DNA from: a virus
Length of the DNA stretch: 37,551 bases
Virus genome (UHGV): UHGV-0071294
Reading direction: 5' to 3' (one strand)
The first letter of the stretch is position 1, and each line of letters opens with the position of its first letter. Below are positions 27,847 to 37,551 of the stretch, piece after piece. Under the pieces are notes generated by a model, which was given only the letters and a program-made list of their open reading frames with translations, did not search any database and had not been told where the DNA came from. Made by a program: the position numbers and the translations under genes.

Positions 27847-28429
27847 CAAAATCAGAAGCATACTTCCTGTCAGCGCCAGCCGGGCAGAGCGGGTGGTGGA
27901 CAGTACCGCCGGTGATATGCTGGCGGAAATCGCAGTATGTCTGATCCGCTATGTCAAAAATCCCGATTTATGTCCTGCTGAATTGCTGCCATGGCTGGCC
28001 TGGGAAATGGCGGTGGACACCTGGAATGAACACTGGACGGAGGCGGAAAAAAGGTCTGCGATAAAACGTGCTGCATACATCCACCGCCACAGAGGGACTA
28101 AAGCGGCGCTGATGGCATCGCTGGCTGACAGTCCCTTCCGGTCGCAGATTGTTGAGTGGTATGAGCAGACCCCACCCGGGGAGCCGTATACCTTCCGTCT
28201 GAACGTGGAGCAGAAAGATTTACCGGTGCTGATGAATGATCATCAGGATCTGAAGCATGCGGTGCTCCGTGCCAAAAATCTGCGCAGCTGGTTCAGTATT
28301 CACGTTTACGGGAACAGCACAGGGCGTGGATTTGGTTACGGCTATGTGATGGCGACAGAAAAAATCAGAAGTACCGGTGTGACAACAAAGACAGTGCCCA
28401 CAGGCGGGCAGAGTGAGGCAGGTGTATGA
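27839..28429 (+). CDS. Tail protein I (P2 gpI-like)
   Basis: DLCPAELLPWLAWEMAVDTWNEHW matches P2 I (DTCPANLLPWLAWAFSVDRWDEKW). Confidence 0.85.
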   Translation: MNDKIRSILPVSASRAERVVDSTAGDMLAEIAVCLIRYVKNPDLCPAELLPWLAWEMAVDTWNEHWTEAEKRSAIKRAAYIHRHRGTKAALMASLADSPFRSQIVEWYEQTPPGEPYTFRLNVEQKDLPVLMNDHQDLKHAVLRAKNLRSWFSIHVYGNSTGRGFGYGYVMATEKIRSTGVTTKTVPTGGQSEAGV

Positions 28430-29811
28430 ATGGACTGATTCTGACAACGTCCGGCGCTGCAGAAATTGAAGCAGCATATCAGAACGGGCAAACCGTGACC
28501 GTCCGGCATGTTCTGCTTGGTGACGGGGGCGGGCGGGCATTGCCATCCACGCCGGATGAAATGGCAGCAATGACATCGTTGTACGGCGAATTCGGGCAGG
28601 AACCCTTTTCCGACGGTGCGGTGGAGGAGGGCTTCATCAGCGGGGATATTGTGATTGACTGTAAATCATACCCCGGTAAAACCCTTCGTGAACTGGGGAT
28701 GATCAGCGACAGAGGTACGCTTATCGCGTACGGACGTTATCCCGACACCTTTTTACCAGACCAGACGGACTCTGTTATCAAGGAAGTTATTCTGACGCTG
28801 GTTCTTGGGCTGACGCACGCACAAAACGTGGTGCTGGAAGTTGATCCGGACAGGGCCATTATTACTCAGGAAATCGGAGACAGACGCTATCTGCAACGAA
28901 AAAAGAATCTTTCGGATGTGGAAGACAAGGATGAGGCTGTTGAAAACCTCGGATTAAAACCCACGGTGGACAAGGCAAAAAATGCCGTTCAGCGTGATGG
29001 TGACACCATGACCGGGGAACTGAAAATCCGTGGTGTTAATGCGCTGAGGATTTTCAACGAAGCCTTTGGTCTGATTTTTCGTCGTTCGGAAGAGTGCCTG
29101 CACCTTATCCCTACCAGTGAAGGTCAGGGCGAGAATGGCGATATTGGTCCACTTCGACCGTTCACTATTAATCTGCGGACGGGTGAAATATCCATGTCGC
29201 ATAAAGTGTCTGTTGGCGGCGGTTCTCAGGTCAATGGTGCGCTGGGTATCGGCGTTCAGAACGCGCTGGGCGGAAACTCAATTGCTTTCGGGGATAACGA
29301 TACAGGTATAAAACAAAACGGCGACGGCATTCTGGATGTTTATGCGAATGGACAGCATGTATTTCGTTTCCAGAATGGTGTGGCGATAGCGTTAAAAAAT
29401 ATTCAGGCCGGAAATGCTAAAAAATTCACGTTATCCAGCGCCAACAACTCCACGAAAAACGCAACGTTTAATTTATGGGGTAATTCATCCCGACCTGTAG
29501 TTGCAGAGCTTGGTGATGATTCCGGCTGGCATTTTTACAGTCAGAGGAATACGGATAACAGTATAACGTTCGCTGTAAACGGGCAGATGGTTCCATCAAA
29601 CTACGGAAACTTTGATGCCCGCTATCAGACCAAAACAGGCGGTGTACAGGATGTGCGTCTGGGCAGTGCCATTGGTATTGGGCGTGGCGGGAACGCACCA
29701 TCAGGTCACCTTATCAGCGGTCTTGATGGTGGTGAAAGTATGGACTGGGCCAATGCCCGCCCGGTGCAGGTTCTGATTAATGGCGTCTGGCGGAATGTAG
29801 CGAGTTTGTAA
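28426..29811 (+). CDS. Tail fibre protein (P2 gpH-like), 461 aa
   Basis: C-terminal 150 aa (QNGDGILDVYANGQHVFRFQNGVAIALKNIQAG...RPVVAELGDDSGWHFYSQRNTDNS) closely match the P2 H C-terminus; lacks the H middle region. Confidence 0.85.
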   Translation: MNGLILTTSGAAEIEAAYQNGQTVTVRHVLLGDGGGRALPSTPDEMAAMTSLYGEFGQEPFSDGAVEEGFISGDIVIDCKSYPGKTLRELGMISDRGTLIAYGRYPDTFLPDQTDSVIKEVILTLVLGLTHAQNVVLEVDPDRAIITQEIGDRRYLQRKKNLSDVEDKDEAVENLGLKPTVDKAKNAVQRDGDTMTGELKIRGVNALRIFNEAFGLIFRRSEECLHLIPTSEGQGENGDIGPLRPFTINLRTGEISMSHKVSVGGGSQVNGALGIGVQNALGGNSIAFGDNDTGIKQNGDGILDVYANGQHVFRFQNGVAIALKNIQAGNAKKFTLSSANNSTKNATFNLWGNSSRPVVAELGDDSGWHFYSQRNTDNSITFAVNGQMVPSNYGNFDARYQTKTGGVQDVRLGSAIGIGRGGNAPSGHLISGLDGGESMDWANARPVQVLINGVWRNVASL

Positions 29812-29813
29812 TT

Positions 29814-35220: not shown

Positions 35221-36299
35221 ATGAATATCAGCCGGATTTCAGTCTGACAGCGGAAGGCCAGGATATCACGAAGGCAATAAAACGTGGGCTGGCTGAGCTG
35301 CGATATACCGATAATGGTGCTGGCACAAAGCGGTCCGATGAACTGATGATAACGCTGTTCAGCGAGACGCTGGCGTTGCCACCGAAAGGCGCGGTGCTAA
35401 CGCTGGGACTGGGGTTCAACGGAAATCTGGTCAATAAAGGCAGTTTTACCGTCTGTCAGGTGGCAAGCGGTGGTCCTCCCCGCCGGCTCACCATTTATGC
35501 CACCGCAGCCCCCATGAATGCGTCAAAACATGGCGCAGACGTGACCGCACTGAAAACCCGGGCTTTCAGCGATATCACACTGGGCGACCTGGTGAAAACC
35601 ATCGCCACTGAAAATAATCTGGTGGCGCGCGTCTCATCGGTGCTTGCTGATATTCATATCCCGTGGGTGATGCAGTCATCAGAATCTGATGCTGCCCTCT
35701 TATCCCGCATTGCAGGTATGTACGGCGCCACCAGTAAACCGACCAGTGGCTACTGGTTATTTCTGGAATACGGGGCATCACAGAGTACGGGGGGCAGAAA
35801 TGCGCCCGAGATAACCATTACGCCGGGTATGGTATCAGACTGGGATTATCGTGAAGGTGAGCGACAGGGCGCTGCGGGTGGTGCGAAGGGGGATAAAAAG
35901 AGCGGGAAAGTTGGGGTCCGGTATTTTGATGCTCGTGACGGACGCACACGTGAAGTTAAAGTTGACGTGGAGTCAACAGATAAGCGGCATCCGTTTACCC
36001 AGCCTGACCAGGGCACCGCAAAACACTGTGCAGAGTCGAAGGTTAAACGTGTGCAGAAAGCCGGACGCCAGATGACGATAACGTTGCCCTGCAGGCCGGA
36101 ACTGCTGAAAGCAGGGGCGGAGATGCGTTTTGTCACGCAGGGATTTGGTGTGCGTGAGGACCATCACTGGCAGGCTGAGTCTGTGGAGTTTTCACTGGTA
36201 CCGGGACAGGGATTTACGCTGAATCTGTCACTGACCACGGATATTTCTGCAAAGGGGAAAGCCAGTGGCAAGAAAAAAGGCGTCAATTATTTTGGTTAA
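35211..36299 (+). CDS. Tail protein D (P2 gpD-like late control D)
   Basis: 362 aa, terminal gene of the P2-type tail cluster order U-X-D. Confidence 0.8.
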   Translation: MGLNEYQPDFSLTAEGQDITKAIKRGLAELRYTDNGAGTKRSDELMITLFSETLALPPKGAVLTLGLGFNGNLVNKGSFTVCQVASGGPPRRLTIYATAAPMNASKHGADVTALKTRAFSDITLGDLVKTIATENNLVARVSSVLADIHIPWVMQSSESDAALLSRIAGMYGATSKPTSGYWLFLEYGASQSTGGRNAPEITITPGMVSDWDYREGERQGAAGGAKGDKKSGKVGVRYFDARDGRTREVKVDVESTDKRHPFTQPDQGTAKHCAESKVKRVQKAGRQMTITLPCRPELLKAGAEMRFVTQGFGVREDHHWQAESVEFSLVPGQGFTLNLSLTTDISAKGKASGKKKGVNYFG

Positions 36300-36323
36300 T
36301 GTTTTCTGAATCAGGAAATAAAC

Positions 36324-37551
36324 ATGTCTGTATTAATTTCGGGTGTGCTGACGGATGGCACGGGACTCCCCATGTCCGGATACCATATTATTCTGAAAGC
36401 CCGACAGAATACATCCGCAGTGGTTATGAGAACGGTGGCAACAGTTTTGACGGGGCCGGCAGGAGAATATGCATTTGAGGCTCAGACCGGAAGATATGAC
36501 GTTTATCTTCGGTCATGTATTGAAAGAGAATATTGTGTTGGTGATATTTCGGTTTACGACGATTCAAAGCCCGGTACACTGAACGACTTTCTGACCGCCC
36601 TCGATGAAGGCGATTTAAAACCGGATGTCGTTAAGCGGTTCGAAGAACTGGTGGCGCAGGCGCAGCAGAGCGCGGAGGCGGCAGCGGAAAGCGAACGACA
36701 GGCCGGGCAACATGTCGCTGATGCGCAACAAATCAAGAGCGACTGCGAGACGCTGGCGGATAACGTACAGCAGAACGCCGAGGCCGTTGCTGAAGATAAA
36801 AGGCAGGTGGCACAGCTGGCATCATCTGCCACACAGGATGCGGCTCGCGCAGAGCAGGCCGTTAAGGACGCAGACAAAATCGTCGATAAGGCTGTTGATA
36901 AACTCGGTGAAGTCGCAACGCTGAGCGGCGAGGTAAAAGCCAGCGCCGAAGTGGCAGCAAAAAGCGAGCAGAATGCAAAAAAACACGCGGATAATGCAGC
37001 AGAAATCGCACAGCAAACCGCACAGGACGCAGAAGCCACCACAACAGCCCGTGATGATGCGGAACGTTTTGCGGGTGAGGCAGAAAACAGTGCACAGACA
37101 TCAGGGGCAGCGCGGGATGAATCGGTTGATGCTGCTGAACGTGCCTGCCAGCATAAAGAAGCAGCATCTTCGGCTGCGACCAGTGCAGAAAATGCGGCAA
37201 ATAAGGCGCAGGGACATGAAAATGCCACCGCAGAATACGCCCGGCAGGCGAAGGCCAGTCAGGATGCGAGCGAAGGCAATGCGCAGGAAGCGAAACGGTG
37301 CAGGGACGAGGCGCAGCAGATTGTTGATGACCTGAAGGGAAGTAATGCCACCACGACAGAAAAAGGCCTGGTGCAACTCTGTAGTGACACGGATAACGAC
37401 AGCGAAGAACTGGCGGCCACACCAAAAGCCGTCAAAGTCGTCATGGACGAGACGAATACAAAAGCGCCGCTGGACAGCCCGGCGTTCACCGGCACGCCAA
37501 CCACACCAACCCCGCCGGACGATGCGACCGGGCTGGAGATGGCGAACGCGG
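36324..37551 (+). CDS. Side tail fibre protein (lambda Stf-like), 5' partial view; ORF continues beyond the window
   Basis: N-terminus ISGVLTDGTG...LKARQNTSAVV...VYDDSKPGTLNDFL matches lambda Stf (ISGVLKDGTG...LKARRNSTTVV...VYEDSQPGTLNDFL); later LAATPKAVKVVMDETNTKAPLDSPAFTGTPT matches the Stf/P2 H motif. Frame is open to the end of the window. Confidence 0.85.
   Translation, partial: MSVLISGVLTDGTGLPMSGYHIILKARQNTSAVVMRTVATVLTGPAGEYAFEAQTGRYDVYLRSCIEREYCVGDISVYDDSKPGTLNDFLTALDEGDLKPDVVKRFEELVAQAQQSAEAAAESERQAGQHVADAQQIKSDCETLADNVQQNAEAVAEDKRQVAQLASSATQDAARAEQAVKDADKIVDKAVDKLGEVATLSGEVKASAEVAAKSEQNAKKHADNAAEIAQQTAQDAEATTTARDDAERFAGEAENSAQTSGAARDESVDAAERACQHKEAASSAATSAENAANKAQGHENATAEYARQAKASQDASEGNAQEAKRCRDEAQQIVDDLKGSNATTTEKGLVQLCSDTDNDSEELAATPKAVKVVMDETNTKAPLDSPAFTGTPTTPTPPDDATGLEMANA

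Follow-up and report, generated by a model that had tools for sequence, protein, structure and literature searches.

The region described here spans positions 28426-37551 of the virus genome UHGV-0071294, a stretch of 37,551 nucleotides (nt) that was analysed as a whole and is called the window below; all features mentioned lie on its plus strand. The source is an Escherichia coli prophage, a hybrid temperate phage that combines a lambda-like head and neck with a contractile tail in P2 gene order. The region carries two distinct fibre genes, one for a short baseplate fibre of the P2 gpH type (fibre 1) and one for a fibre of the lambda Stf type (fibre 2). This had been claimed by an earlier reading made from the sequence alone (the sequence-only reading), and each gene proved to be intact and accompanied by a chaperone gene of its own, coding for a Tfa protein and a DUF4376 protein, respectively. 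Pfam bit scores were judged against the family cut-offs, protein pairs were aligned by BLASTP, and PHROG profiles were used for the connector genes.

Fibre 1 is a protein of 461 amino acids (aa) encoded at 28426-29811, and its start overlaps the stop of the gpI gene at 28426-28429. The N-terminal attachment domain (aa 4-148, 28435-28869) matched PF12571 (Phage_tail_fib) with 54.6 bits against a cut-off of 23, and aa 24-161 aligned with residues 28-163 of P2 H (26% identity, E 6e-7). The shaft and distal receptor-binding region (aa 172-461, 28939-29808), assigned by similarity to P2 H and Mu gpS, was 52% identical to residues 376-669 of P2 H (E 2.5e-86). No counterpart of the central shaft of P2 H (residues 164-375) was found in the H-like protein by BLASTP, which makes it a short variant like L54 of phage phiP27. 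These two alignment blocks agree with the proposal that the protein keeps both ends of P2 H and lacks its centre. The tip matched the crystallised fibre end of Mu gpS (5YVQ, residues 414-503; E 1.3e-20), and similarity to the trimerisation region of T4 gp34 was also seen (E 3e-11). Judged from these matches, a receptor-binding end is present on the H-like fibre, and the objection that it might lack such a domain failed. The baseplate wedge proteins gpJ (26932-27846; PF04865 Baseplate_J, E 1.7e-21) and gpI (27839-28429; PF09684 Tail_P2_I, E 8.5e-36) are the expected docking site of this fibre (26932-28429). The gene for Tfa (29814-30359; PF02413, 82.2 bits), the fibre 1 assembly chaperone of the P2 G/lambda Tfa/Mu U family, begins 2 nt after the H-like gene, next to which it had been predicted. 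Tfa was 36% identical to P2 G and 91.7% identical to phiP27 L55.

The gene for fibre 2 follows gpD, as had been proposed, with its start slightly adjusted to the ATG at 36324. A 24-nt spacer with a ribosome-binding site separates it from the gpD stop, and the frame stays open for 409 of its 757 codons up to position 37551, where it leaves the window. The expected lambda-type N-terminus was recovered as a match of aa 1-134 to PF08400 (186 bits) and as 44% identity to lambda Stf over aa 1-123 in the BLASTP alignment. The collar domain (aa 1-95, 36324-36608), which was delimited by its match to the structures 9E7M/9MGH, is followed by a stretch rich in alanine, glutamate and glutamine (aa 105-335, 36636-37328; 27% A, 12% E, 11% Q), corresponding to the low-complexity region of the sequence-only reading. 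This stretch aligned with the coiled coil of gp40 from phage XM1, and its composition points to a coiled-coil shaft, here judged from sequence alone. A PF03406 repeat (aa 343-382, 37350-37469; 56 bits) lies next to it, and the two motifs noted previously, LAATPKAVK and TGTPT, start at aa 363 and aa 389. The part of the protein that includes PF03406 and LAATPKAVK (aa 341-456) was 71% identical to residues 212-327 of P2 H over 116 residues. The middle piece of P2 H that is missing from the H-like fibre occurs instead in the Stf-like protein.

The rightward extension suggested by the sequence-only reading was possible with the prophage of E. coli CEA224S, which is 99.88% identical to window positions 16426-37551 and supplied the missing 348 aa together with the chaperone. 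In CEA224S the Stf-like gene is intact (757 aa), and a 194-aa DUF4376 protein (PF14301, 63 bits) is encoded 14 nt after its stop, beyond the window. A tRNA-Ser(tga) gene and then hyaA follow at the prophage end. The downstream chaperone of the Stf-like fibre is therefore a DUF4376 protein and not a PF02413 Tfa; gp27 of Alteromonas V22, which is related to DUF4376, was experimentally shown to be a fibre chaperone (PMC7289586). Beyond aa 496 the full-length Stf-like protein had no similarity to lambda, and it does not have the gp37-like tip of lambda. Since the gene was intact in CEA224S and also in three relatives (608-854 aa), it is not a truncated pseudogene, a concern raised earlier. The RefSeq names of both fibre genes already follow their N-terminal domains.

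We searched for the region in 5426 complete E. coli genomes; 238 of them matched some of it, and 73 covered at least 80%. Relatives with integration sites at tRNA-Ser, ssrA and ompW carry gpD, the Stf-type gene and the DUF4376 gene, in this order, at their right ends. The Stf-type protein has 672 aa in E423 (L026, integrated at ssrA; allele at L026 13892-15910), 608 aa in Z1324 (L027) and 854 aa in SC407, the last two both with ompW as their integration site. Z1324 (L027 13899-15725 and 16369-17292) deviates in part, as an IS903B (IS903) element occupies the position of the DUF4376 chaperone gene. The gpD-Stf junction was also present in 11 contigs of IMG/VR, and five of five full-length Stf-type copies examined in the E. 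coli lineage were intact. We considered that the Stf-like gene could be a remnant of a neighbouring lambdoid prophage. The same layout moves with the phage to three integration sites, and the gene is therefore not a relic of a neighbour.

The two fibres differed strongly in how much they varied. Among four E. coli relatives the neck, baseplate, sheath and gpI proteins were mostly 97-100% identical, FII 91-98% and gpD 88-98%. H was 90-100% and Tfa 76-98% identical. For the Stf-like protein only about the first 139 residues were common to the window and Z1324, identity to E423 was 57% over aa 1-319, and two blocks were shared with SC407. The E423 allele contains collagen triple-helix repeats (PF01391, E 4e-55), and in the Z1324 allele the C-terminus is unrelated and matched nothing in Pfam; the shafts of the alleles are of either the coiled-coil or the collagen type. 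Within the lineage, dN/dS of the collar domain was 0.04-0.16, with dS up to 0.48, and it was about 0.1 against the phiP27-type collar. Purifying selection thus acts on the collar domain, whereas distal ends are swapped, as expected of a receptor-binding protein in use. From these alignments, the Stf-like gene beyond about aa 139 is to be regarded as a recombination hotspot and as the variable host-range arm of the lineage. A hotspot at the fibre genes had been suggested before; the suggestion holds for the Stf-like gene, which shares just aa 1-139, but not for the H-like gene.

In relatives of this tail family from other genera the arrangement was different. The order V-sheath...D-W-J-I-H-G with one fibre was found in 16 of 18, and the other two, both from Serratia, share the P2 order, and neither shows an Stf-type N-terminus after gpD. 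In one of them (L024) gpD is the last phage gene, with host genes directly after it. An Stf-like gene after gpD as an ancestral trait of the tail family was rejected on these grounds. When isolates were compared by their sheath proteins, Hafnia phage yong2 (64%) and Citrobacter phage Chris1 (61%) came nearest. Chris1 (L005, 19877-24243) has a single fibre, together with a DNA invertase and an alternative fibre/chaperone pair that can be inverted, and no second Stf-type fibre; host-range variation is reached there by another route.

Comparison of gene orders indicates that the four genes for fibre 1, Tfa, the Stf-type fibre and the DUF4376 protein form one widespread module. It is contiguous in phiP27 (L54-L57), in Rac-SA53 (tail1-4), in yong2-like contigs (L059/L060/L064) and in lambda-like contigs (L068/L079). 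In phiP27 and in Rac-SA53-type, yong2-like and lambda-like contigs, a single conserved DNA block runs from the 3' end of Tfa across a 23-nt spacer into the start of Stf; the gpD-Stf junction of the window, by contrast, has its own spacer. The P2 order of the tail genes in the window places the block from sheath to gpD (30414-36299) inside the module.

We scanned IMG/VR with an alignment of the collar domains and sorted the 80 loci returned by their upstream context. Contractile tails of the Rac-SA53 type and lambda J/lom each preceded 22 loci, genes of the present lineage 11, phiP27-type genes eight, and yong2-like and distant Mu-like genes three each. The context of 11 loci was unclassified, and a true P2 context was found for none of the 80. 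Upstream of collars at least 56% identical to that of the window there was almost always a fibre and Tfa pair, and downstream there was a DUF4376 gene wherever the sequence reached that far. Three yong2-like contigs extend the order as ...H-Tfa-Stf-DUF4376. The layout of the window can be explained by a single block move of W-J-I-H-Tfa to a place in front of the sheath gene, with Stf staying behind gpD, and it can equally be derived from an ancestor in P2 order, like the Serratia prophage L024, that gained the Stf pair at its end.

The module is common to toxin-converting phages with contractile tails (Rac-SA53 with LT-IIa, phiP27 with Stx2e). In Rac-SA53 (L109, 1-514 and 21834-27533) heat-labile enterotoxin IIa is encoded together with the four-gene module before attB. 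Searchable papers on PF08400, on neck fibres of temperate myophages, on E. coli prophages with two fibres and on Rac-SA53 did not describe the arrangement, nor did they describe a function of the second fibre in phiP27 or Rac-SA53.

For the attachment of fibre 2 the collar domain is the most informative part. Residues 1-93 matched StfN of Ur-lambda (9E7M/9MGH) with E 1e-18, and identity to the Ur-lambda collar was 47% over aa 1-95; the collar of the window differs from lambda's own collar, with 42-47% identity. Residues 1-190 aligned with residues 1-181 of XM1 gp40 (7KJK, E 1e-8). The identity of gp40 was 23-24% to the window collar type and 17% to the lambda collar, so it is slightly nearer to the former. 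Residues 1-94 of Ur-lambda Stf form a six-stranded beta domain with a helix, and 12 Stf copies (four trimers) build a collar around the gpV/gpM tail-tube junction; this fibre speeds adsorption yet is dispensable (PMC12617516). In XM1, a simple Vibrio myophage whose gpI homologue bears additional baseplate spikes, the N-terminal domain of gp40 is located at the neck, where six trimers touch the gp4 ring (SPP1 gp16/gpFII type) and the gp5 tail terminator, and a coiled coil and a distal spike follow this domain (PMC10457771).

Lambda-type gpV, gpM and J were absent among the tail genes of the window, which code for a sheath, a tube and a P2-type baseplate. Three connector genes were identified between head and tail. 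A gpFII-like head-tail connector (head closure Hc1, 24287-24694) was found by phmmer with lambda gpFII (1K0H, E 2.5e-6) and by phrog_82 (E 5e-28), and a Neck1/tail-completion protein (24675-25397) by phrog_27 (E 1.6e-28); for the latter no solved homologue was found in PDB, either by single sequence or by profile. The third gene (25409-25960; phrog_1072) codes for a tail terminator/collar protein like PA0615 of R2 pyocin, since a profile of 12 homologues had 6U5F ('Collar PA0615', E 1.3e-4) as its sole match. The gpFII-like and the PA0615-like proteins are candidate neck partners of the Stf collar. Because the tube of a contractile tail lies under the sheath and the baseplate socket is taken by the PF12571 fibre, we infer that fibre 2 may be a neck or collar fibre like XM1 gp40. 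This placement rests on analogy and geometry, and we give it a little less than an even chance.

A less probable arrangement, although one to be taken seriously, would place fibre 2 near the baseplate, at its periphery, at the sheath-baseplate junction or on fibre 1, where it would act like the side fibres of lambda or T5 and reach the cell before the H-like fibre. The homologous collar of lambda is indeed close to the tail tip (PMC12617516). A long fibre beside the short fibre 1 of 461 aa would be functionally sensible, and most other backgrounds have the fibre 2 gene immediately downstream of a fibre 1/Tfa pair. However, the tube-type hexameric ring that is clasped in lambda would be covered by sheath and baseplate, as deduced from general myophage architecture. 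The P2/pyocin-type baseplate has one known fibre socket, which is used by the PF12571 fibre.

The distribution of collar variants was informative about docking on fibre 1. The variant of the window (loop RSCIEREYC) recurred with 88% identity in contig L035, where it belongs to a second Stf that follows a true lambda Stf with lambda tfa, and no H-type region is present. The phiP27 variant (KQDWRDEYC) is common to Mu-like, Rac-SA53-type and lambda-like tails. The variants were thus independent of both the type of fibre 1 and the type of tail. Docking on the shaft of fibre 1 is therefore unlikely, even though the distal region of H was 70-85% conserved across backgrounds. Likewise, the idea that collar variants track the tail type through a tail-specific partner was abandoned, as the same variants were found across unrelated tails.

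As to a possible neck family common to all these backgrounds, connectors of the Hc1/Ne1 type are present in the window and in phiP27. The proteins encoded between capsid and sheath in Rac-SA53 belong to PHROGs of unknown function, and the neck proteins of the window had no tblastn match in phiP27 at 1e-4. Two tandem Stf-type fibres with different collars were seen in two lambda-like (J, lom) contigs, L035 (7049-10768) and L079 (7297-11839). The first fibre has a lambda-type collar in both, and the second has a window-type collar in L035 and a phiP27-type collar in L079, where this second fibre is apparently frameshifted (304 + 117 aa). Two Stf paralogues on one particle would make sense if they were attached at different sites. 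That the collar of the second fibre is a portable adaptor independent of tail type, and a plug-in neck-fibre cassette if it docks at the neck, is a tentative idea that we hold somewhat less firmly than the neck placement itself.

Taken together, we consider it probable, at about 75%, that the region encodes a complete host-recognition apparatus with two different trimeric fibres, each with its chaperone. Fibre 1 would be the canonical baseplate fibre, docked by its PF12571 N-terminus on the gpJ/gpI wedges. Fibre 2 would be built like lambda Stf, with an Ig-like collar of about 95 aa, a long coiled coil and a swappable distal domain, and it would be produced together with the DUF4376 protein from the last gene pair transcribed in the late operon. 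By analogy to Ur-lambda and XM1, fibre 2 would first bind reversibly to a variable structure on the cell surface, and fibre 1 would then bind a conserved receptor and trigger contraction. The collar of fibre 2 may be seated at the neck, where the gpFII-like and terminator rings would hold it, the tube clasped in lambda being hidden under the sheath here. Such an apparatus may confer dual receptor specificity, as the sequence-only reading had suggested. The receptor of P2 is the core of the lipopolysaccharide (LPS), and given the 52% identity of the distal regions our guess is that fibre 1 may also bind the LPS core.

Several points weigh against this reading. The neck site is derived from an analogy at 23% identity and from a geometric argument, and the collar of lambda itself binds near the tail tip (PMC12617516). 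From residue counts (a tape measure of 550 aa, and a fibre of 757 aa with a 230-aa coiled coil) we estimated a length of about 60 nm for fibre 2 and of about 80-90 nm for the tail. A neck fibre would fall short of the baseplate plane, and a role in first contact is therefore less obvious. Furthermore, yong2, Chris1 and 16 of the 18 genomic relatives have a single fibre, and the two Serratia prophages lack an Stf-type N-terminus after gpD, so the tail functions without fibre 2. A search of the phage collection with the tail genes gave no isolate above 85% nucleotide identity, only matches to fibre fragments, and fibre 2 is thus a predicted part of the virion.

That the Stf-like/DUF4376 pair is a passenger cassette of lambdoid ancestry or gained next to attR, which is expressed but not part of the particle and persists by recombining into other prophages, is improbable: yong2 and Chris1 are viable phages of this tail type without the pair, gpD is the last phage gene in Serratia L024, lambda stf-tfa has the same attR-proximal position and is dispensable (PMC12617516), and Z1324 has lost the chaperone gene to an IS903 insertion, but all five full-length copies are intact, the pair is kept at three integration sites, selection on the collar is purifying even though distal ends are swapped, Stf is translationally close-coupled to gpD with no terminator between them, and the homologous collar protein is a structural part of the myophage XM1 (PMC10457771).

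Every component of the region falls in a described family, and the two-fibre combination is an ordinary one that recurs in many E. coli prophages. Its value lies in a map of the host-range parts, with a nearly fixed baseplate fibre and an Stf-type fibre that is exchanged with its chaperone past an anchor of about 140 residues. This conserved anchor is a natural splice point for engineering. A homologous collar domain was solved on the tube of a siphovirus (Ur-lambda) and on the neck of a myovirus (XM1), and near-identical copies of the collar found here serve at least five tail backgrounds in E. coli prophages, some with Stx2e or LT-IIa. The place where the collar docks on contractile tails would account for the passage of one fibre cassette between tail morphotypes, and it would also tell if neck fibres are common among temperate enterobacterial myophages. 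If a plug-in cassette for the neck exists, one host-range module could pass between siphoviruses and myoviruses with unrelated tails, which would also explain two Stf paralogues at two sites on lambda-like virions.

The fibre genes are embedded in a P2-order tail cluster (V, W, J, I, H-like, Tfa, hairpin, sheath ... D) that makes up the last third of the window, with W at 26601-26957. A terminator-like hairpin between the Tfa and sheath genes (30378-30402, GACCGCC-UGAG-GGCGGU followed by U7) matches the position of the terminator of the P2 V operon in the P2 annotation. The block between the two fibre genes comprises sheath (30414-31889), tube (31886-32404), E (32458-32766), tape measure (32884-34536, 550 aa), U (34533-35027), X (35002-35220) and gpD (35211-36299). 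The match of gpD to PF05954 (23 bits) was under the cut-off of 30.1 bits; the assignment is backed by its position, by the RefSeq name 'late control protein' and by 45-52% identity to protein D of relatives. A second terminator-like hairpin lies within the late cluster at about 32424-32441, 3' of the tube gene, and a search of the gpD-Stf interval for a terminator-like site found none. Near its 3' end gene E has a TTTTTTTG run (32723-32730) of the slippery-site type, as in the -1 frameshift of P2 E/E', and a small ORF directly 3' of E is annotated in E423.

The head genes are lambda-like and code for terminase, portal, S49 protease, decoration protein, major capsid protein, FI and an FII homologue, and the lambdoid early genes include CI-type and Cro-type regulators and Q. 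Several other genes were seen outside the tail cluster. A lone protein of the K88/F4-type fimbrial subunit family (15447-16274; PF02432, E 4e-48, 275 aa) is encoded with the lysis genes on one side and the small terminase gene on the other, a moron-like position; in the counterpart of this region in CEA224S (98% identical DNA) the coding sequence is annotated as 'hypothetical protein' only. An AraC-family regulator (11286-12026) lies between the Q antiterminator gene (10238-11059) and the holin gene, a location that lambdoid phages use for cargo genes, toxin genes among them. The early region also contains a gene for a Fic/DOC family protein (7473-7961). Between CEA224S (L002) and window positions 1-16425 the relationship was mosaic, with blocks of 94-98% identity and gaps, and the variable part of CEA224S carries a KwaB-like (Kiwa) gene and hok/gef.

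Among known systems, P2 H/G shares with the window the order V-W-J-I-H-G, terminator, FI...D, as well as the PF12571 N-terminus, the PF02413 chaperone and the 52% identity over the distal 290 aa. P2, however, has ogr and attP after D, where the window has the second fibre, its H contains residues 164-375 that are missing from the H-like protein, and it lacks the lambda-like head and neck. The Stx2e phage phiP27 (NC_003356) has the same four genes in the same order at its attR end (L54-L57). The distal 247 aa of L54 were 75.6% identical to the H-like protein (aa 159-461), the Stf collars were about 80% and the DUF4376 proteins 77.7% identical, and the third gene of the set codes for a fibre with PF08400, like the Stf-like protein of the window. 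The LT-IIa phage Rac-SA53 (KU052037, L109) also has these genes in this order at the attR end (tail1-tail4). In phiP27 the four genes are contiguous behind a baseplate in Mu order, and in Rac-SA53 behind a baseplate of its own type, whereas the module is split in the window. In both phages the N-terminal adaptor of fibre 1 differs from the gpH-type PF12571 adaptor found here.

Ur-lambda Stf resembles fibre 2 in its collar, flexible linker, long coiled coil and PF03406 repeats and in its position at the end of the late operon. Its collar clasps gpV/gpM of a non-contractile tail, and the window encodes neither of these proteins. It has a gp37-like tip and a PF02413 chaperone, whereas the fibre of the window has an unrelated distal domain and a DUF4376 chaperone. 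XM1, in turn, has a simple contractile tail like the phage studied here; its receptor-binding proteins on a gpI-type wedge are complemented by a second trimer, gp40, in which a coiled coil comes after an Ig-like N-terminal domain homologous to the collar of fibre 2. XM1 gp40 differs from fibre 2 by its low identity (23%), by a distal part like the Det7 tailspike and by a gene located far from the tail genes. Its attachment to the neck was solved by structure, while the corresponding attachment in the window is a proposal derived from sequence.

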